A stretch of 23,277 nt of DNA from a virus. Of the stretch, positions 1,658 to 22,984 are shown one piece after another. Each line of letters starts with the position of its first letter. Position 1 is the stretch's first letter. Position numbers and translations under genes: made by a program. Location: UHGV virus genome UHGV-0070450; one strand, written 5' to 3'. Below the pieces are notes generated by a model. That model had not been told where the DNA came from, did no database searches, and saw only the letters and a program-made list of their open reading frames with translations.

Positions 1658-3547
1658 ATGAAATCCGAAACGCTAACCATCCAGCAAATTTTCCAAAATC
1701 AACGACAATATCGTGTTCCATTCTATCAACGTGCCTACGTATGGACGCAACGAAACCAATGGTCAGCTTTGTTGGAGGATATCTTCGAAAAAGCACAGAG
1801 CCGACTTTCGGGAACAAAACCAACCCCTCATTTCCTCGGCGCGGTGGTGCTGGAACCTCAACTCAAAAACAGCTTGTTAGGTGTAGATACCATACATATT
1901 ATTGACGGCCAGCAACGTTTAACCACTCTTCAATATATTCTGGCATCCATTCGATTATCATTGCGTGCTACAGGCCTTTCTGAACTGGAAGGGTTAGTAT
2001 TGACTTGCTTGAAAAATACAAACGAAGCAACGATGAGAAATAAAAAGGTAGAATGCTTCAAACTGTGGCCAACTTTTCGAGATCAAACTCATTTTATTCA
2101 AAGTCTTAATGTTGATAATATTGACGATCTCCGTAATGTATTTTCTGATAGCTTCACGCAACATGGTACGTTACGTAAACATTTCAACCACCCGCCGTCA
2201 CTAGAGGCATTATGGTTTTTTACTGAAGCCTTTATAAAATGGATTAAAATAGAAAACCACTCACCACAAGAAAATGCTGTAGCACTAATTGAGGCTGTCT
2301 TGACGGATCTGAAACTGGTAAGCATATTTCTCGAAGCTGAAGATGATGCCCAAATAATTTTTGAAACATTAAATGGGCGAGGAGCGGAACTTCATGCAAC
2401 GGATCTTATTCGCAACTATATCTTTATGTGCGCTGAGCATGAAAATATTAATGCTATTGAATTATATGAAAATGAGTGGAAGATCTTTGAAGATAAATAC
2501 TGGTCGGAAAAGCAACGCCGTGGACGTATTAATAAACCACGCATGGAGTGGCTTGTACATGCGACATTGCAATCAGAAAGGCAGCGTGAAATTGATCTGT
2601 CTCGCCTTTACAATGAGTATCGTGATTATGTAAGTAAGGACTTGCCTTCACAACGAGCAGATCTGCAAGTAAAGCGCCTCAAACAATATGCATCACAATA
2701 TAAAGAATTGGTTGGTGGTTTTGGCACAACCCCCATCTCACACTTTGGACATCGCATCGCAGCCTATGATGTGACGACACTCTATCCGCTTGCTTTGTTC
2801 ATTTCGATAGCTAACATCGCCGATGATGAGAAAGCAGCCATGTATAATGATCTTGTCTCCTACGTAGTACGAAGATCCGTATGTGGCCTGACGCCAAAGA
2901 ATTACAACAATGTATTTATGAATGTATTGCGACACTTGTCTAAAACGGAAATTTCCAGTGTTGAGTTACGTAATATCCTCAATAGCTTAAATGGCGAAGC
3001 CTCACGTTGGCCTGGGGACTCAGAATTTCTCAACGCTTGCATCAATGCTCCACTTTATCCTGGCAGGCTCGACGCACCGAAAATGCGCTCAATGTTAACG
3101 GAACTTGAAAGAGAACTTTGTCGCCAAGTGAAGACAGAAAAGCCTGATGTTCCAAATCTTTCTAATCTCGATATCGATCATCTTATGCCTCAAAGTTGGT
3201 ATTCCTGTTGGCCTCTCGAAAATGGTCATATGGTGACAAATTCAGATGCTACGGTAATGAACCAAATTGTTCTGTCTGGAACCGATCTTACCCCTGAACA
3301 GCTACTGGTAAGGAAACGGCAACAAGCGATAGCTACGTTGGGAAATCTAACTTTGCTTAACCTTAGCGTAAACCGTTCCGTTCAGAATGCTGTATTTCTG
3401 AAAAAACGTGATGCTCTCATCGTCCACACCAATCTACGACTGAACATACCACTTATACTTAAGGATAAATGGGATGAGAGTGAAATACAGGAGCGAGGTA
3501 AAAAGTTGGGGGAAATTGCATTGAAAGTATGGCCAAAATACGATTAA
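1658..3547 (+). CDS. GmrSD-like type IV (modification-dependent) restriction endonuclease; DUF262 (ParB-like NTPase) fused to DUF1524 (His-Me finger nuclease)
   Basis: 629-aa ORF. N-terminal part has RVPFYQRAYVW and IIDGQQRLTTL (DGQQR motif typical of DUF262); C-terminal part has DIDHLMPQSW ... NLTLLNLSVNRSVQN ... KKRD (H/N/N pattern typical of DUF1524). Sits where e14 carries mcrA. Confidence 0.75.
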   Translation: MKSETLTIQQIFQNQRQYRVPFYQRAYVWTQRNQWSALLEDIFEKAQSRLSGTKPTPHFLGAVVLEPQLKNSLLGVDTIHIIDGQQRLTTLQYILASIRLSLRATGLSELEGLVLTCLKNTNEATMRNKKVECFKLWPTFRDQTHFIQSLNVDNIDDLRNVFSDSFTQHGTLRKHFNHPPSLEALWFFTEAFIKWIKIENHSPQENAVALIEAVLTDLKLVSIFLEAEDDAQIIFETLNGRGAELHATDLIRNYIFMCAEHENINAIELYENEWKIFEDKYWSEKQRRGRINKPRMEWLVHATLQSERQREIDLSRLYNEYRDYVSKDLPSQRADLQVKRLKQYASQYKELVGGFGTTPISHFGHRIAAYDVTTLYPLALFISIANIADDEKAAMYNDLVSYVVRRSVCGLTPKNYNNVFMNVLRHLSKTEISSVELRNILNSLNGEASRWPGDSEFLNACINAPLYPGRLDAPKMRSMLTELERELCRQVKTEKPDVPNLSNLDIDHLMPQSWYSCWPLENGHMVTNSDATVMNQIVLSGTDLTPEQLLVRKRQQAIATLGNLTLLNLSVNRSVQNAVFLKKRDALIVHTNLRLNIPLILKDKWDESEIQERGKKLGEIALKVWPKYD

Positions 3548-3798: not shown

Positions 3799-4188
3799 AT
3801 GATGCCATTTTCTCGTTATTTCTGCATTTTCATAAACGTTGGTTTGGGAGAATTATCTCTGGCTGGCACTGCATCGGGTGTCATTGGTCTGAATGGGTAT
3901 GTAACGATTCCGTTAATTATTTCAGGTTCCCGGAGAACACTGATTATTCAGTGGGGGCAGGCGAGATTTGGTGGGTCTGGTGGTGAAGATGCCGGATATC
4001 TTAATGATTTTCCTTTTGCCTTTCCGTCAGCATGTTATGGAATGATAGTTAGTCATGTGGGGCATACACCTTCAGGCGCAGGAATCCTGTCGGCTTCTGC
4101 AATTACATCAAATCAGTTCCGCGGTTTTTCAAGCATAGCGACTGCTGCAAATGCTGTATTAGGTCGTTATATCGCTATAGGGGGTTAA
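3799..4188 (+). CDS. Alternate tail-fibre C-terminal domain (promoterless copy inside the invertible segment)
   Basis: Contains TLIIQWGQARFGG, sharing the LIIQWG motif and a 17-bp identity (CTGATTATTCAGTGGGG) with the minus-strand fibre ORF. The track start at 3799 is probably not a true start because the ORF runs through the crossover site. Confidence 0.5.
   Translation: MMPFSRYFCIFINVGLGELSLAGTASGVIGLNGYVTIPLIISGSRRTLIIQWGQARFGGSGGEDAGYLNDFPFAFPSACYGMIVSHVGHTPSGAGILSASAITSNQFRGFSSIATAANAVLGRYIAIGG
3827..3852. other. Candidate invertase crossover site (hix/gix-like 26-mer), pin-proximal
   Basis: ttttcataaacgttggtttgggagaa; its reverse complement TTCTCCCAAACC... resembles the hix half-site TTCTTGAAAACC, and it pairs as an inverted partial repeat with 5267-5292. 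Confidence 0.4.
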
Positions 4189-4189
4189 T

Positions 4190-4627
4190 ATGTTTTATAG
4201 TCCATCATTAAACATTTTTGTGAATCCTGCGCTTAAGGATGATTACATTAATGCAAATTCATGGCCAGATGATGCTCTGGCTGTCAGTGATGATGTTTAT
4301 AATGAATTTGCAATCAATACGCCCCCATATGACAAAATTCGTGTTGCAGGAAAAAATGGATTACCCACATGGGCACTAATACCTCCACCATCGCATGAAG
4401 AACTTATTCAACAGGCAGAATCAGAAAGGCAATTATTGCTTAATCAGGCCAACGAATACATGAACAGTAAACAATGGCCCGGTAAAGCCGCTATTGGTCG
4501 TCTGAAAGACGAGGAACTGGCACTATATAATTTGTGGCTGGATTACCTGGACGCACTGGAACTGGTGGATACCTCCAGTGCTCCAGATATTGAATGGCCT
4601 ACACCTCCGGTAACTCAGGCCAGCTAA
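4190..4627 (+). CDS. Tail fibre assembly protein (Tfa family)
   Basis: 145-aa ORF immediately after the fibre segment, ending ...TSSAPDIEWPTPP, which parallels the ...TSTAPEISWPELP end of the convergent copy. Confidence 0.7.
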   Translation: MFYSPSLNIFVNPALKDDYINANSWPDDALAVSDDVYNEFAINTPPYDKIRVAGKNGLPTWALIPPPSHEELIQQAESERQLLLNQANEYMNSKQWPGKAAIGRLKDEELALYNLWLDYLDALELVDTSSAPDIEWPTPPVTQAS

Positions 4628-5024
4628 TCTCAGGAGCCGTCGAAGTGTCGACGGCTTTTACTTCTTTTTTGTAGTCCATCCAGGCGGATAGTTTTTCTTT
4701 ATCTGTACTGCTGATATCACCAAGCATTAATTCCACTCGCCAGTCAGCTGTGACATTATCGGCATGAGCAAGTAACTGCATTCGCTGATTTTCAGCACGT
4801 GCGACATAATCAATCGCCGGAGATTTCAGTACCGGTAAACCATTTTCATCTGACGTGATTAATTTACCCCCTTCCTGCTGTCCGGCAATTAATTCATTGT
4901 ATAAGTCTGTACTTATCTCAACAATGTCAGCAGGCATGTCGCTGTTTATACCATCAAAGAAAAAACCATTAGTCGATTTTGAGAAATAAATCATAGATAT
5001 ACCTATACACCGATTGCTACCCAA
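4599..5024 (-). CDS. Tail fibre assembly protein (Tfa family)
   Basis: 141-aa ORF; its 3' end overlaps the convergent tfa by about 29 bp, as in invertible G/P segments. Confidence 0.7.
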   Translation of the reverse strand: MGSNRCIGISMIYFSKSTNGFFFDGINSDMPADIVEISTDLYNELIAGQQEGGKLITSDENGLPVLKSPAIDYVARAENQRMQLLAHADNVTADWRVELMLGDISSTDKEKLSAWMDYKKEVKAVDTSTAPEISWPELPEV

Positions 5025-5524
5025 AAACAGGACCTTTCATATTTGACAATTTCTCCCTGAGATATACCGCCAACAATTATATAGAACTGTGATTTGGTGA
5101 TATCAGAACAGTTCGCAATGCCCATTGCAGATATACCCGCCACCGACGTTGTATGTGGTACAGCCAACAGCGCAAGTGAACGACTTGGGAATGTTACCGG
5201 GTAAGTCACCGTATAGTTTGATGCTCCACTGACTATACCCCACTGAATAATCAGACCTGAAGGGAGTTTTTGAAAACCCGTTGATGAAAGTGAACTGGCA
5301 AACGCCGCCATATCCGGAATTTGGTTTTGCTCGTTACCCACATTTCGTTTTGCCGCTTCTCCCAAACCAAGGTTTTGAAGAGCCGTTTTCACCGTGCCGT
5401 CCGGTTTGTCGCGGTTCGGGTATTCGTGCGTTTCCACACGACGACCGGTTCCCGCACTTTCTTCTTCAACCTTAAACGGCACACCGCGAAATGACGCGTC
5501 CTGAAGTCTGTCTTTCCACGTCAT
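5003..5524 (-). CDS. Chimeric tail protein: Mu gp43/N-like DNA-circulation N-terminus fused to a tail-fibre C-terminal domain
   Basis: Likely start MTWKDRLQDASFRGVPFKVEEESAGTGRRVETHEYPNRD (GGAG Shine-Dalgarno 5 nt upstream) resembles the DNA-circulation N-terminal signature; C-terminal half (GLIIQWGIVSGASNYTVTYPVTF...) is fibre-like. The track ORF extends to 5566. Confidence 0.55.
   Translation of the reverse strand: MTWKDRLQDASFRGVPFKVEEESAGTGRRVETHEYPNRDKPDGTVKTALQNLGLGEAAKRNVGNEQNQIPDMAAFASSLSSTGFQKLPSGLIIQWGIVSGASNYTVTYPVTFPSRSLALLAVPHTTSVAGISAMGIANCSDITKSQFYIIVGGISQGEIVKYERSCFWVAIGV
5267..5292. other. Candidate invertase crossover site (hix/gix-like 26-mer), distal
   Basis: tttttgaaaacccgttgatgaaagtg; left half TTTTTGAAAACC matches the recalled hix half-site TTCTTGAAAACC at 11 of 12 positions; lies inside the tail-fibre coding sequence. 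Confidence 0.4.
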
Positions 5525-5539
5525 ATAAACTCCGTACAT

Positions 5540-5561
5540 AAAAAATCCCACCGGAGTGGGA
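5540..5561 (-). terminator. Stem-loop with T-run just after the tape measure stop (minus strand)
   Basis: Minus strand reads TCCCAC-TCCG-GTGGGA followed by TTTTTT, between the tape measure stop (5585) and the next start (5524). Confidence 0.4.
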
Positions 5562-5584
5562 CTCATTAACAGATTAATTTTTCA

Positions 5585-17850: not shown

Positions 17851-18374
17851 ATGTACTCCAATGAAGAAACCAGCGAAATAGCTGCCTTCATTCGTAGTAA
17901 ACCTTTTTCATCAACGCAGTAATGGATTCTTTGAAGAGTCGCAATCAATACAACTCACTAATGGAGAGACTTGTCTCACGCATGAGACAAATTTCCCGTT
18001 TGAATTAATGGACACTATAGAGGGACAGAATGCCTTCCTCACTCGAATCACATCAATTAAGGAAGTTCAACATGTTTCATTCCACAAGTCATCAGGCTGT
18101 AATTATGGCAGCATCAGTTTGTGCCACAGACCTTTTCCGCTTCACTTTGAGCCTGATTCATTTCTACCTGACCGGCTCGCTTCTATCTTTTTAATCCCCG
18201 CTTTATCCAAATTGCATTGCCAGAATGCCGACAACAGACTGACATTCAAATCCTGACTACCTCCAATAGTCTGACCGTACACCTATATAGTTTTAATTTT
18301 CATCAATCCATTTAACTATCGTTTAATTGTTGTCACATAGGATTCTGCCGTTTTTAACAATGCAGGATAATAAG

Positions 18375-18665
18375 ATGAAAAAAATGTTGTTTTCTGCCGC
18401 TCTGGCAATGCTTATTACAGGATGTGCTCAACAGACGTTTACTGTTGGAAACAAACCGACAGCAGTAACACCAAAGGAAACCATCACCCATCATTTCTTC
18501 GTTTCGGGAATTGGACAGCAGAAAACTGTTGATGCAGCCAAAATTTGTGGCGGCGCAGAAAATGTTGTTAAAACAGAAACCCAGCAAACATTCGTAAATG
18601 GATTGCTCGGTTTTATTACTTTAGGCATTTATACTCCGCTGGAAGCGCGGGTGTATTGCTCATAA
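18375..18665 (+). CDS. bor: Bor lipoprotein (lambda bor-like serum-resistance outer-membrane lipoprotein)
   Basis: MKKMLFSAALAMLITGCAQQTFTV... with lipobox LITGC; strongly matches recalled lambda Bor. The track ORF starts further upstream at 18327; 18375 has the AGGA Shine-Dalgarno. Confidence 0.85.
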   Translation: MKKMLFSAALAMLITGCAQQTFTVGNKPTAVTPKETITHHFFVSGIGQQKTVDAAKICGGAENVVKTETQQTFVNGLLGFITLGIYTPLEARVYCS

Positions 18666-18699: not shown

Positions 18700-19161
18700 C
18701 TATCTGCACTGCTCATTAATATACTTCTGGGTTCCTTCCAGTTGTTTTTGCATAGTGATCAGCCTCTCTCTGAGAGTGAAATAATCCCGTTCAGCGGTGT
18801 CTGCCAGTCGGGGGGAGGCTGCATTATCCATGCCGGAGGCGGTGGTGGCTTCACGCACTGACTGACAGACTGCTTTGATGTGCAACCGACGACGACCAGC
18901 GGCAACATCATCACACAGAGCATCATTTTCAGCTTTCGCATCAGCTAACTCCTTCGTGTATTTTGCATCGAGCGCAGCGACATCACGTTGGCGCACCTGC
19001 ATGTCAGTAATTGTCGAGTTCGCCAGCTTCAGTTCTCTGGCATTTTTGTCGCGCTGGGCTTTGTAGGTAATGGCGTTATCACGGTAATGATTAACCGCCC
19101 ATGACAGACAGACGATGATGCAGATAACCAGAGCGGAGATAATCGCGGTTAATCTGTTCAT
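18700..19161 (-). CDS. rz: Rz i-spanin
   Basis: 153-aa ORF with N-terminal membrane helix ([20 protein letters not shown]) and coiled-coil periplasmic domain; follows the endolysin gene with a 4-nt overlap. Confidence 0.85.
18759..18941 (-). CDS. rz1: Rz1 o-spanin, embedded in the +1 frame of Rz
   Basis: [49 protein letters not shown]... with lipobox VVGC and a proline-rich stretch; near-identical to recalled lambda Rz1. Confidence 0.8.
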
Positions 19162-19634
19162 ACCTCAATCTCTCTGACCATTCCGCCCGCTTCTTTGAAT
19201 TTTGCAATCAGGCTGTCAGCCTTATGCTCGAACTGACCATAACCAGCGCCCGGCAGTGAAGCCCAGATATTGCTGCAACGGTCGATAGCCTGACGAATAT
19301 CACCGCGATCAATCATCGGTAAAGCGCCACGCTCTTTAATCTGTTGCAGTGCCACAGCGTCCTGGCTTTTCGGAGAGAAGTCTTTCAGGCCAAGCTGCTT
19401 GCGGTAAGCATCCCACCAGCGTGAAAGAAGTTGATAACGGCCTGCAGCTGTTGATTTGAGTTTCGGGTTTAGCGTGACAAGTTTGCGAGGGTGATCGGAG
19501 TAATCAGTGAAGAGTTCTCCACCGACAATAACGTCATAACCGTGGTTACGTGTCGGTTGTCGCCCGTTATCCGTTCCCTCTGACCATGCCACCATATCCA
19601 GGAAAGCTTTACGCTGGGAATTTAGTACCTGCAT
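19158..19634 (-). CDS. R: Endolysin, lambda R-type lytic transglycosylase
   Basis: 158-aa ORF ...[80 protein letters not shown]... closely matches recalled lambda R. Confidence 0.9.
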
Positions 19635-19637
19635 AAA

Positions 19638-19964
19638 TTACTCCTTAGAGCCACCAAACTTGTTACCGATTACTCTCATTGCAGCCCCACGAATAGCATC
19701 AACACCGATCAGCCCCACCCCACCACCAATGGCAACAGATAGTGATTTAGGCCATCCGACATACTCAAGAGCGGATGCAAAAGTCAGCGTCAGAGCGCCA
19801 CAGAGTAGAATTTCGAGTGTTTTTCGCTTCCAGCCGCCACCACCGCCAAAATAGGCAATACGTAAACCAGCCATAACAATCGACATAATCACTGCGCCCA
19901 GCGGTGTGTCTCCACGCCACCAGCTCTGGACCAACTCCAGCCATGTATTTGGGTTATGAGGCAT
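19638..19964 (-). CDS. Holin (lambda S-family-like)
   Basis: 108-aa ORF directly upstream of the endolysin gene with hydrophobic segments (GAVIMSIVMAGLRIAYFGG..., ILLCGALTLTFASAL..., VAIGGGVGLIGV...). Confidence 0.75.
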   Translation of the reverse strand: MPHNPNTWLELVQSWWRGDTPLGAVIMSIVMAGLRIAYFGGGGGWKRKTLEILLCGALTLTFASALEYVGWPKSLSVAIGGGVGLIGVDAIRGAAMRVIGNKFGGSKE

Positions 19965-20110
19965 TTGTAGTTATCTCTCACCTCGCTGATACAGCAGGTG
20001 CAAATTGAGGAAACATCATGTACCGCAAATCAGAAGCGGAAACGTCAAAGAAGCCGAGTCAATGGATAACTGCGGGATAGGCTAGGACCAAGGAATCCCC
20101 AGACCCAGAA

Positions 20111-20138
20111 ACGACAAAACCCGCTCGATGGCGGGTTT
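20111..20138 (-). terminator. Intrinsic terminator on the minus strand upstream of the holin gene (tR'-like position)
   Basis: Perfect 8-bp stem AAACCCGC / GCGGGTTT with 6-nt loop; on the minus strand it is followed by TTTTGTCGTTTCT. Confidence 0.45.
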
Positions 20139-20255
20139 AAGCTGTGTGGCGAAGTGAGCACACTTAACAGATTACGATATTTTTTGCGTACGCGTTAGTG
20201 TTTTGATAGAATTTTCAGCCACATAAAAATTCATTCTTATAATTCGGGATATATA

Positions 20256-21431
20256 ATGGATATAACTTGTTTAGAATGTGGCAATGTTCTTGACGACCCA
20301 ACTGTAGCTTGCGATAAATGCGGTGCCACGCCTCATGTTGTAGTGCTGGGCAAACAATCGTACTTTCCTATTGGTGCTGTAACAGCAAATCTTGAAAAAA
20401 ATGATTCAAGAGCATTTGATTATCGATTAGGTGAAGTTTGGGATCTAAAAAATGAAGTCACATCTGAATTCATAACCAGAATTGAGAAAAAATTTAGCCG
20501 AAAAAACAAATTTCATAACTTCCTAGACTCAGATCACAACCCTTCATCCATTCCTACGATCCTAAAAAAATACATTAATAAAAATAATGAATTCATTGAT
20601 TTATCTAGAGCTATAATAGAGAAGCTTAAACATAATGCTAATAACGAATCGAGAGTTGCCCAACTTCAGGGGGGGAGCGTTGTTTTCATCCACTATAAGT
20701 CTACCGAACCAGAGGATTTGGGGAAACTTCTAATCGTAATGGTTGATAAACAAAGCGCCTATGACTTTGATTCGGATAAGTTGACCCCAACAAGATTAAA
20801 TCCAATTAATACCGATGCCTTACGGCAGGCTGCGATGTTCGATTTAACTTTATTCGAAGCCAGTTATCCAGAAAACAAGGGTGACTCATATGTACATTTC
20901 TTGCAAGGTAAATCTAAAAGCGATTTTTTCAAAGACTCATTAGGTTGCCGACATGATTCGGACAATAAAAGAAGCATTCAGCAATTATTCAGTGCTATAG
21001 ATATTTTTGCTAGTAAAAACTCACTCGGTCGTGTACTGCGTGATACTATTGACAATGAAGTTAAATCCTTACTGGAAAAAAAATCAAAAGATAAACACGG
21101 AAATAAGTCCGTTAAGATAGAGGATATTTCAAAAATAATTGACTCATGCCTGACTGATTCACACAAATGTAAGGGAACGTTTGTCGATTTTGTTAATCTT
21201 AATGGTTTCCAGATTGACCCTCAATTTGAACCAACTCCTAAAGCAGCTGAAAGCGCGCTTACAATTGAAGTGGCAGATAACGACAATAATTTTAAGTTGA
21301 AAATAATGCGTGGAGCTATTGGAGACGAAAAGTCAAATAAGCCTGTAATTCTCACTGACAACAAATGCGAAATTGTGATAAAATTGAGTCAGGCAAATTA
21401 TGATGAACTCAAAAGATATAGAGACAGCTAA
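20256..21431 (+). CDS. Cargo protein: N-terminal zinc ribbon fused to an NdpA/YejK-like (NA37 nucleoid-associated) domain
   Basis: 391-aa ORF. N-terminus has CLECG...CDKCG (two CxxC pairs). The central region (GGSVVFIHYKS..., AMFDLTLFEASYPENKGDSYVHFLQGKSKSDFFKDSLG...) aligns by eye to E. coli YejK (GGFVLFCHYRY..., [38 protein letters not shown]...). AT-rich, opposite strand to the phage genes. Confidence 0.65.
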   Translation: MDITCLECGNVLDDPTVACDKCGATPHVVVLGKQSYFPIGAVTANLEKNDSRAFDYRLGEVWDLKNEVTSEFITRIEKKFSRKNKFHNFLDSDHNPSSIPTILKKYINKNNEFIDLSRAIIEKLKHNANNESRVAQLQGGSVVFIHYKSTEPEDLGKLLIVMVDKQSAYDFDSDKLTPTRLNPINTDALRQAAMFDLTLFEASYPENKGDSYVHFLQGKSKSDFFKDSLGCRHDSDNKRSIQQLFSAIDIFASKNSLGRVLRDTIDNEVKSLLEKKSKDKHGNKSVKIEDISKIIDSCLTDSHKCKGTFVDFVNLNGFQIDPQFEPTPKAAESALTIEVADNDNNFKLKIMRGAIGDEKSNKPVILTDNKCEIVIKLSQANYDELKRYRDS

Positions 21432-21433
21432 TA

Positions 21434-22648
21434 ATGACAATTGCTGATGACTTATCAAGATTAGCGCAGATTATTAACGGAGCCTCAAGCAGAGTTGAGG
21501 GCTACTACACTGTCATAAGTCTTGAAGAAAGCATTGTTATTGTAAATAGTTCTGAAATAATTAGACTGTTACAATCTATAGGTTATAAAAAGGCAACAAC
21601 CTGCATCGAAAATAATGAAATTTGGCTAGATCGCCAAGCTTCATCTTGGGATGATGCTATAATTTATGAGAATGTTGAGTCTTTTTGGTCTAGAGTAAAC
21701 ACCCAAAACGCTCTTCCGAAAAATTATATCATCGGAACGCCGTTAATACTCCCTACTTCTAAGAATGAAAGCATCGAAAAAATCCATATTTTCTTTATGT
21801 GGAAAGATATCCTTTCATTAATTTCTGATCATCATAACAGTGACTGCTCTGTCTTATTTTTCACCAATGAAGACAAAAGTTATACAGTCGAACTCACGCA
21901 TTTTTTACAATATAGCGAGATTAATCGCTTATCGAACTCGTCTCTTAAATATGAAATTATAAAGGAGCTTCTCGACACAATAAAAATCAATGATTTACAC
22001 AAAAGCGAGCGCAAGCTCGTTATACGCTCAGCCATAAACGAAGTATTTAAAGCAAATGGTACGTTCAATTTCTTTGACTTGCTTAACTCTACTGAACTCG
22101 TCAGGAAAAAATATGATGAACTATATGAGATTTACACAAAGAGGTTTTCTGTAAATAAAATTCTTAACGAACTCGATGAGAAAAATCTTGAGTTCACGAG
22201 TAAAATTAACGAATTCATATCATCTAATCAGACAAAAGCATTGACTATTCCCGGTGCATTAATAGCAGCTGGTGGCTTAGTGAAGGCTAATGAAACAACC
22301 GAAGCAATATTGATTATCGCAGGACTTTGGATGATAAAAAAAGTCAATTACATTTCTATTGAGATATTCAATGAAACATTCGACAACTTACGTTCTCGAG
22401 TGGAGTCCGCTTTCGATAAGTATTTAAAGTTTGAAGAAAATAAAGAAATCAAAGATAATGCAGATAGTATTAAGAGTAGCATTACAGGTTTGATTGATAA
22501 AGCTAAAAAAAGGATGAGAACTGTTAAATATCTCGCATCAGCCATGTTTTATGGAGGCCTTATTTACGTTGGATATAAACAGTTCCCAGTCTTTTTTGAA
22601 AAATCGGCAGTAAATCTATTTTATTTTTTATGCCATACTATAAGCTAA
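21434..22648 (+). CDS. Cargo protein of unknown function with two predicted C-terminal transmembrane helices (candidate membrane effector)
   Basis: 404-aa ORF starting 2 nt after the upstream stop (translationally coupled); hydrophobic stretches LTIPGALIAAGGLV / AILIIAGLWMI and YLASAMFYGGLIYVGY; no recognisable catalytic motif; AT-rich. Confidence 0.65.
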   Translation: MTIADDLSRLAQIINGASSRVEGYYTVISLEESIVIVNSSEIIRLLQSIGYKKATTCIENNEIWLDRQASSWDDAIIYENVESFWSRVNTQNALPKNYIIGTPLILPTSKNESIEKIHIFFMWKDILSLISDHHNSDCSVLFFTNEDKSYTVELTHFLQYSEINRLSNSSLKYEIIKELLDTIKINDLHKSERKLVIRSAINEVFKANGTFNFFDLLNSTELVRKKYDELYEIYTKRFSVNKILNELDEKNLEFTSKINEFISSNQTKALTIPGALIAAGGLVKANETTEAILIIAGLWMIKKVNYISIEIFNETFDNLRSRVESAFDKYLKFEENKEIKDNADSIKSSITGLIDKAKKRMRTVKYLASAMFYGGLIYVGYKQFPVFFEKSAVNLFYFLCHTIS

Positions 22649-22984
22649 CATTGCTAAACAGCCATCAACAAACCCCATTGCAGTTTGCAGTTCCTTCCTA
22701 ATTGTGCCATCAGAGCATTTTCTCTTCTTCGCAATAGTGCGTAATGAGATACCGATAACAAAGTGGGCGATGATGAGCTCATATTCCTCTGGTTTATACC
22801 TTCTCAACCGAGCCACACAACTGTCTATCATGATGCCTTCGTCATCATCACACTGAATCCGTGACTTTTTGCCATGAGGTAAAAGTCCCTTGAAACCAGC
22901 CGCTATCGGCTGCCAGTCCACTCCGCTATTGTCTGAAGCAGCCCAAGCTCCCCAACGATCCATTACTTCATACATATCACGCAT
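22628..22984 (-). CDS. Late-gene antiterminator Q (Phage_antitermQ-like)
   Basis: MRDMYEVMDRWGAWAA...WQPIAAGFKGL... matches the RWGAWA / IAAGFKGL signature recalled for one Q family. Start taken at the ATG with GGAG Shine-Dalgarno (track start 22999 is a TTG). Confidence 0.7.
   Translation of the reverse strand: MRDMYEVMDRWGAWAASDNSGVDWQPIAAGFKGLLPHGKKSRIQCDDDEGIMIDSCVARLRRYKPEEYELIIAHFVIGISLRTIAKKRKCSDGTIRKELQTAMGFVDGCLAMLAYSMA

Follow-up and report, generated by a model that had tools for sequence, protein, structure and literature searches.

The antisense cargo beside Q in an e14-like prophage of Escherichia coli corresponds to the two-gene anti-phage system DS-1

The virus genome UHGV-0070450 (23,277 nucleotides; this whole stretch of DNA is hereafter called the window) derives from an e14-like lambdoid prophage of E. 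coli and carries, antisense between the antiterminator gene Q and the holin gene, an AT-rich cassette of two genes at positions 20256-22648. Judged by sequence, this cassette is the anti-phage system DS-1 (working id D390), already known from the DefensePredictor study of DeWeirdt, Mahoney & Laub (bioRxiv 10.1101/2025.01.08.631726, January 2025; Science, April 2026, PMC13092281). The initial annotation of this DNA had guessed at an anti-phage function and had called the pair undescribed. The guess was sound, as a near-identical pair has published plaque-assay defence; the pair itself is described, as DS-1, with two NCBIfam models (NF053868 and NF053869) and RefSeq naming. We consider it likely that DS-1, as AT-rich prophage cargo, acts by release of a nucleoid-associated protein (NAP) onto a membrane effector, leading to abortive infection. 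As a discovery this adds little, the pair being validated, named and included in the NCBI annotation models, with a mechanism proposed for its class. What is added here is the co-occurrence of the two genes across their family, the optional nature of a zinc ribbon in the first protein, an N-terminal domain without known fold in the second, and the busy cargo slot in which the cassette resides.

Results

The cassette corresponds to DS-1

The cassette consists of two coupled open reading frames (ORFs) on the + strand, ORF A (20256-21431, 391 aa) and ORF B (21434-22648, 404 aa). The stop codon of ORF A (TAA, 21429-21431) is separated by 2 nt from the ATG of ORF B at 21434, all flanking genes lie on the opposite, - strand, and the GC content of the cassette is 0.33-0.40 versus 0.50-0.58 for the lysis and structural genes, in full agreement with the initial description of two coupled, antisense and AT-rich ORFs. 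The cassette and its parts are as follows.

20203-20243 (+): candidate cassette promoter, from a consensus scan and reading of the sequence
20256-21431 (+): ORF A, DS-1A (WP_000355468.1), 391 aa, putative nucleoid-associated-protein-like sensor, from identity and profiles
20268-20321 (+): N-terminal zinc ribbon of ORF A (C5, C8, C19, C22), read directly in the sequence
20445-21383 (+): NA37 / YejK-like domain of ORF A, residues 64-376, from Pfam NA37 and the match to PDB 9be2
21434-22648 (+): ORF B, DS-1B (WP_000150293.1), 404 aa, putative membrane effector, from NCBIfam NF053869 and PHROG 5023
21434-22078 (+): N-terminal alpha/beta domain of ORF B, residues 1-215, acidic, candidate docking ('DMK'-like) domain
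22109-22348 (+): most conserved core of ORF B, residues 226-305, from the family alignment, hydrophobicity and AF2
22520-22588 (+): C-terminal hydrophobic helix of ORF B, residues 363-385, a conserved hydrophobic segment

DS-1 (D390) was published as a 2393-bp unit in NZ_RRVY01000002.1 that encodes WP_000355468.1 (391 aa, zinc finger plus YejK) and WP_000150292.1 (404 aa) (Tables S6 and S8, PMC13092281). The interval 20256-22648 has exactly this length. ORF A is identical to the tested WP_000355468.1 over 391/391 residues. Of the tested WP_000150292.1, Table S8 prints 399 residues, 398 of which agree with ORF B; the difference is S131 here and A131 in the tested protein, and the variant present here is WP_000150293.1. 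The evidence for defence is that of the published, near-identical clone with A131, and it would extend to the S131 form by likeness of sequence.

Profile searches likewise place the pair in a characterized system, as both NCBIfam models for DS-1 are passed. ORF A scores 451.4 bits against NF053868 (DS1_1_antiphage, nucleoid-associated anti-phage protein; cutoff 330, E 2.1e-135), covering profile positions 3-369 of 369, and ORF B scores 375.3 bits against NF053869 (DS1_2_antiphage; cutoff 315, E 2.7e-112). ORF B is also assigned to PHROG 5023, and recent PGAP/RefSeq annotation names it 'anti-phage protein'. Neither cassette protein was matched by PADLOC v2 (2023). Note that PADLOC v2 has no DS-1 model, so that a PADLOC check alone would have suggested novelty; the reading of the raw sequence had thus singled out a true defence system without such a model.

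The published clone, carried on a low-copy plasmid with its native promoter/upstream region, is active against phages (PMC13092281). Expressed as -log10 of the efficiency of plating (EOP), with all values taken from Table S7 of that study, the effect is strongest on Bas1 (7.6, plaque column '-'), followed by Bas26 (2.7, small plaques), Bas3 and T3 (1.7 each, small plaques), T5 (1.0, plaque column '-'), T7 (0.9, small plaques) and SECphi27 (about 0, small plaques). Table S7 records no effect of D390 on T4, RB69 or lambda, because the 26 occurrences of 'D390' are all found in these seven rows or in names of plate files. With the taxonomy of the test-panel phages taken from the BASEL paper, the phages restricted by DS-1 are T1-like (Drexlerviridae), T5-like and T7-like. 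The DefensePredictor authors counted the YejK domain as newly validated in defence, and their paper contains neither mutants nor a mechanism for DS-1 (PMC13092281).

The convergent arrangement with Q is tight. The final 21 bp of ORF B (22628-22648) overlap the 3' end of Q, an overlap that is also present in the RefSeq annotation, and this leaves no room for a terminator of its own in either gene. Transcripts producing Q would continue antisense into ORF B. Upstream of ORF A, the candidate promoter comes in two options, either TTGATA (20203-20208) with a 16-bp spacer and AAAAAT (20225-20230), or a perfect TATAAT (20238-20243) with a weak -35; in the consensus scan, this signal alone does not rise above chance.

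A and B form a mobile module in Gammaproteobacteria

The ORF B family is much larger than a word-indexed search, which returned only 69 clusters, would indicate: a profile search of 1.84 billion representatives gave 783 matches at E <= 1e-3, of which 383 reach E <= 1e-10, and almost all are 380-450 aa long and aligned end to end. The initial annotation had suggested a survey of gene neighbourhoods for co-occurrence of the two genes and for links to defence islands. In 21/21 contexts examined, an NA37 gene lies directly upstream of B on the same strand. These contexts comprise five gene look-ups (P. aeruginosa, Pseudoalteromonas, Pseudoteredinibacter, Serratia and E. coli), 12/12 species-representative genomes and 4/4 remote representatives, and they span Enterobacterales, Pseudomonas, Alteromonadales and unassigned metagenome contigs. 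The P. aeruginosa partner had been missed by the first search and is a homologue according to hhalign (probability 100, E 1.5e-55).

The carriers of the pair are diverse, and include a Pf filamentous prophage, integrase islands and an IS-flanked contig (IS, insertion sequence). In P. aeruginosa (L003-L006, 6001-8422) the pair, which there has no zinc ribbon, lies at the margin of a filamentous Pf prophage recognizable by Zot and DUF2523, so the module is also carried by inoviruses. Other copies adjoin integrases, AbiE, an AAA_21 ATPase or BstA. Proteins with a BstA C-terminal domain were seen near the pair in E. coli AF5 (L002, 8545-9474) and in Serratia marcescens (L009, 7423-8334). Overall, A and B form a two-gene module that is mobile among Gammaproteobacteria.

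Within E. coli, 106 of 5426 complete genomes contain the cassette at >= 99% identity. Every record listed has Q, B, A and holin annotated beneath the match, and the cassette is carried by none of the deposited phage genomes. The Q allele that accompanies the cassette (>= 99% identity) occurs in 98 E. coli records, and ORF B adjoins Q in all 30 that were listed. In some genomes the cassette is interrupted by an IS1, which splits ORF A, or by an IS5-family element (E. coli AF5, L002, 3357-5306; hits H13 and H14). These interruptions point to occasional inactivation of the cassette, and the prophage is retained in the genomes concerned.

DS-1A is a YejK-like protein with an optional zinc ribbon

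ORF A begins with two CxxC pairs, C5-x2-C8 and C19-x2-C22, and the HHpred table of the DefensePredictor study places a NinF-type zinc beta-ribbon at residues 3-26 of DS-1A (PMC13092281). The remainder of the protein is covered by Pfam NA37 (PF04245; E 1.2e-23, residues 64-376, above the gathering score), and the ORF A family profile matches the solved YejK structure PDB 9be2 with E 3e-19. The zinc ribbon and the NdpA-like domain had both been read from the letters, the latter by aligning four blocks to YejK/NdpA by eye; the same blocks (GGSVVFIHY, DLTLFE, YVHFLQG and DFFKDSLG) align with PDB 9be2, and both readings are thereby borne out. Against the YejK equivalog model NF001557, ORF A reaches 81.4 bits for a cutoff of 341; ORF A is thus not a YejK orthologue.

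The zinc ribbon is present in 23 of 42 ORF A homologues. The 19 homologues without it are still paired with a B homologue and, Pseudomonas included, have either an acidic, Cys-free tail or none in its place. This distribution marks the ribbon as an optional accessory, predicted to lie outside the core mechanism.

DS-1B combines an acidic domain of no known fold with a conserved hydrophobic core

ORF B had been described as free of recognizable motifs, and a Pfam scan indeed assigned no family, SLATT included, to ORF B or to 34 homologues. No curated model of a known membrane effector (SLATT and others, from Pfam or PADLOC) matched ORF B or its homologues, and a sequence search of the PDB with the ORF B profile gave no match. 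The two C-terminal membrane helices first proposed have to be replaced by three conserved hydrophobic segments: those at residues ~267-283 and 289-305 make up a helical hairpin, and the third is at 363-385.

An AF2 model of ORF B computed with the 34 homologues has a mean pLDDT of 84.8 and displays an alpha/beta domain (residues 1-210) followed by helices at 220-268, 271-284, 288-331, 337-383 and 385-403, being helical across the hydrophobic segments (residues 267-385). The N-terminal domain is modelled with confidence, has a net charge of -8 and a pI of 5.2, and its fold has no known relative. It is acidic in 34/34 homologues, and the C-terminal part is basic and hydrophobic.

Conservation in the family peaks at residues 226-305, and 16 of the 20 invariant columns of the alignment fall within residues 227-278. 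This core consists of an amphipathic helix (RFSVNK..L.E....SKINE..SS.Q.KA) leading into a Gly/Ala-rich hydrophobic helical hairpin (LTIPGALIAAGGL / AILIIAGLWMI); it is followed by a 55-residue helix and then by the last hydrophobic helix. The homologue P0088 from Pseudoteredinibacter (L008, 6001-7584) extends ~130 residues further at its C-terminus, and this extension holds a bacterial SH3_3 domain past the last hydrophobic helix. Because this domain follows the last helix, its position suggests that the C-terminus of ORF B lies outside the cytoplasm.

The cassette occupies a recurrent cargo slot next to Q

The cassette had first been placed in the gap between Q and holin. This position is correct and can be given more exactly, since the cargo extends from the stop codon of Q to a conserved module that ends in a terminator, on the holin side. 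The neighbouring features are listed below.

22628-22984 (-): antiterminator Q, converging on ORF B with a 21-bp overlap
20107-20212 (-): Q-linked conserved non-coding module, common to five phages with differing cargos
19638-19964 (-): lambda-family holin, first lysis gene downstream of the module
19158-19634 (-): lysozyme
18700-19161 (-): Rz

The module (20107-20212, -) reads CTAACGCGTACGCAAAAA ... GTTAAG.GTG ... CTTCGCCACACAGCTT and ends in an intrinsic terminator (20138-20117; terminator scan and fold). It spans ~100 bp of non-coding DNA on the far side of the cargo from Q, and is common to the window, SfII, mEp460, vB_EcoS-569R4 and Stx2a_1447. The cargo slot is bounded on its left by this module, which probably holds the late promoter, the qut site and tR'. 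We had considered that late transcripts read antisense through the cassette. This is probably wrong: it is on the side of the holin that the conserved module flanks the cargo, and the cassette would therefore be outside the late transcript.

The slot is filled by different cargos in related phages. In Shigella phage SfII, the holin and ~240 bp upstream of it are as in the window, and a different antisense two-gene cargo, which matches the PADLOC candidate PDC-M53, precedes Q (73% identical). Other antisense pairs are found at the same place in mEp460, vB_EcoS-569R4 and Stx2a_1447, whose Q is 88-92% identical. On a larger scale, at least 119 viral contigs of IMG/VR contain the 18-mer CTAACGCGTACGCAAAAA, and 90 of these have a Q homologue upstream at a distance of 134 to 2938 bp. 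The Q-to-module DNA of these 90 contigs (positions 20213-22627 in the window) falls into 37 clusters of 0.6-2.9 kb with a GC content of 0.27-0.43, and the main ORFs are antisense to Q in every occupied cluster. A single slot is empty (contig L126), with Q, 134 bp, the motif and the terminator. A query made of the left plus right junctions found no precise empty site in the 5426 E. coli genomes.

DS-1 itself occupies seven of the slots, and two strongly diverged pairs of the A+B family occupy three (L086 and L149 in cluster 12, L074 in cluster 30). Their NA37 proteins have no zinc ribbon, and hmmsearch recovers the B proteins with E 1.5e-25 and 1.8e-16 and the A proteins with E 3e-25 and 8.5e-15. 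All three types of cargo that contain NA37 at this slot are paired with a B-family protein. Other cargos match PADLOC PDC-S33, PDC-M25A, PDC-M53A and ATPases of the AbiL, AriA, Gabija (GajA) or Old type, and many match nothing. Overall, these patterns indicate that the stretch from Q to a probable late-regulatory module is a cargo slot that recurs among phages, and that the cassette is housed there. In prophages of E. coli and Shigella, Stx phages included, the slot is a compact target for the search for more small defence systems.

The cargo of cluster 9 (L093 and relatives) was considered as a type I PANGU system (a published class of defence operon described below) and rejected. It encodes a small-alarmone-synthetase-like protein (PDB YwaC/YjbM, E about 1e-6) adjoining a protein of 372 aa, and this partner is not detectably NA37 (hhalign probability 0.7%).

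Other features of the prophage

A prophage of this e14-like type is integrated at icd in the E. coli strain APEC O2-211. Compared with that intact prophage, the one in the window has its baseplate genes deleted and is defective. A second defence cargo is found in the window at the prophage end, beside the tail-fibre segment: the gene at 1658-3547 (+), with a GC content of about 0.36-0.43, encodes a 629-aa type IV restriction enzyme of the GmrSD family (DUF262 plus DUF1524). Its position is that of mcrA in the e14 element of K-12. The adjacent region (3799-5566) is organised in the typical manner of an invertible segment: C-termini of gp53-like tail fibres and genes for tail-fibre assembly are present as two sets in inverted orientation. 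The ORF at 5003-5566 fuses the N-terminus of a DNA-circularisation protein to a tail-fibre C-terminus.

Opposite the lysis genes, a Bor-type lipoprotein gene (18327-18665, +) corresponds to iss (increased serum survival) in identical E. coli genomes and is a classic lambdoid moron. The same prophage is accompanied by further defence genes in APEC O2-211, where DarT and a macro-domain protein are encoded next to intE (L029, 34195-37364). Rfam and tRNA scans of the window were empty.

Discussion

A NAP-release mechanism and its alternatives

A mechanism for DS-1 can be proposed by comparison with PANGU, a set of defence operons with YejK-like proteins at their core (Li et al, bioRxiv 10.64898/2026.04.06.716658, April 2026). 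In type I, the NAP Pag1A is encoded with the GRel toxSAS enzyme Pag1B. The NAP is a dimer with a central pore that binds DNA of at least 400 bp; it quits the nucleoid when T4 degrades the chromosome, and binds and activates the acidic 'DNA-mimicking' effector domain, with two Pag1A per DMK domain in cryo-EM. When the type I NAP is made unable to bind DNA, the pair is toxic without phage (Li et al, 2026). In type II, the partner encoded with the YejK-like NAP has an N-terminal domain that is acidic and a transmembrane region at its C-terminus. In PANGU-Ecu, a type II system of E. coli, both genes are required, neither is toxic alone and growth curves look abortive; the type II representative arrests growth at a high multiplicity of infection (MOI). 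Pag2A binds the acidic domain of its partner with a dissociation constant (KD) of 19 nM, and Pag2A-GFP leaves the nucleoid upon T4 infection (Li et al, 2026). Under IPTG induction, PANGU-Ecu blocks T4 in an EndoII-dependent manner, and neither T1 nor T5. How the membrane partner of type II is switched on was left open by the authors (Li et al, 2026).

Transposed to DS-1, this scheme would operate as follows. In the uninfected cell, DS-1A, as a YejK-like NAP, would be held on long chromosomal DNA, from which a phage that degrades the host chromosome would release it. Once free, DS-1A would exchange DNA for the acidic N-terminal domain of DS-1B as its binding partner, and this binding would turn on the membrane part of DS-1B, i.e. 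the amphipathic helix, the hydrophobic hairpin and the C-terminal transmembrane helix. The likely route is that DS-1B would oligomerise into a pore or channel and that the membrane potential would collapse, so that the infected cell would no longer support phage growth, as in abortive infection. We infer the sensor step, NAP release, from the type II PANGU class, and the effector step, the pore or channel, from the modelled anatomy of ORF B alone. The initial annotation had proposed a DNA-binding sensor joined to a membrane effector in an abortive layout; the architecture stands, as that of the type II PANGU class, and the mechanism is carried over to DS-1 by analogy.

This NAP-release model is the best explanation because DS-1 shares the architectural features that were tested in that class and because the phages it restricts degrade host DNA. 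T7 and T3 do so via gp3/gp6. T1 and T5 likewise degrade host DNA.

Several observations nevertheless call for caution. PANGU-Ecu acts on T4 and not on T1 or T5, whereas DS-1 affects T1-, T5- and T7-like phages with no entry for T4; the Enterobacterales clade has a zinc ribbon, which the PANGU preprint does not mention ('zinc' has 0 occurrences in it), nor does it mention DS-1; and no mechanism has been published for DS-1 itself. These points would be accounted for if DS-1 defends but is triggered by something other than degradation of the host chromosome, such as phage DNA, a phage protein or a replication intermediate, perhaps sensed via the zinc ribbon. Yet 19/42 family members without the ribbon, e.g. 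in P. aeruginosa, still pair with B, the restricted phages come from three families that are unrelated and have the degradation of host DNA in common, and the acidic, docking-type domain of B is conserved. A trigger of another kind is, in our judgement, unlikely.

Superinfection exclusion would require that DS-1B blocks DNA entry, or that DS-1A coats or silences the incoming DNA, and that the cell survives. The pair is prophage-encoded, includes a membrane protein and resides in a lambdoid cargo slot, and the 7.6-log drop of Bas1 without plaques would be compatible with a block of entry as well. However, the affected phages come from different families and most likely differ in receptors and entry routes, small plaques are what an abortive or late-acting system typically gives, the type II PANGU representative arrests growth at high MOI and needs both genes, and the pair is also found outside prophages, in defence islands. 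Exclusion is thus a very improbable explanation of the published spectrum.

That the pair serves prophage housekeeping or addiction, as a NAP organising or silencing prophage DNA or as a toxin-antitoxin-like stabiliser with incidental anti-phage activity, is hardly credible, even if NA37 proteins are chromosome-associated and the cassette is tightly linked to one Q allele with no empty site in 5426 E. coli genomes, since ORF A is no YejK orthologue (81 bits for a cutoff of 341), the slot holds at least 37 interchangeable cargos of which several match defence families, the pair moves among unrelated elements (Pf prophage, integrase islands, IS-flanked contig), IS1/IS5 disruption occurs in some genomes without prophage loss, and neither gene is toxic alone in the related PANGU system.

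Building on the NAP-release model, a bolder proposal can be put forward, tentatively and with more doubt than conviction. DS-1 might be a branch distinct from type II PANGU, in which an oligomeric channel with an N-terminal domain of new fold would be gated by the DNA-free NAP, with a T1-, T5- and T7-like range of triggers and an optional zinc ribbon that tunes sensing, and the site beside Q might be an undescribed defence hotspot of this lambdoid lineage.

Comparison with known systems

The closest relative is the published DS-1 clone, with which the cassette has in common DS-1A, the gene order, the spacing and the 2393 bp, DS-1B being one residue apart. It differs in coming from another host strain and in belonging to a prophage that lacks the baseplate genes.

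RexA and RexB of phage lambda are likewise a lambdoid prophage pair in which a cytoplasmic sensor and an inner-membrane effector abort the infection by other phages. Unlike RexAB, which is located in the immunity region, DS-1 lies between Q and the late regulatory module, and no relationship in sequence or domains was seen between the two. With the chromosomal 37-kDa NAP YejK/NdpA, ORF A shares the NA37 domain and its GG.V.F.HY, DLT, Y..F..G and DFF...LG blocks, whereas its additional acidic or zinc-ribbon N-terminus, its location on mobile AT-rich cargo and its constant pairing with B set it apart.

Type I PANGU provides the scheme of an NA37 protein that sits on long DNA, is freed by genome degradation and binds an acidic, DNA-mimic effector domain, each of which would apply to DS-1 by analogy. 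The effectors are of different kinds, a soluble alarmone synthetase in type I and, in DS-1, a predicted membrane protein with no enzymatic domain by Pfam. It is with type II PANGU that the correspondence is closest: DS-1 is bicistronic, comprises an NA37 protein and a partner that is acidic in its N-terminal domain and has a C-terminal transmembrane region, is found in E. coli, and is associated with mobile elements and genes for defence. The architecture of DS-1 would accordingly match that of the type II PANGU class, the two being set together by description and not by sequence.

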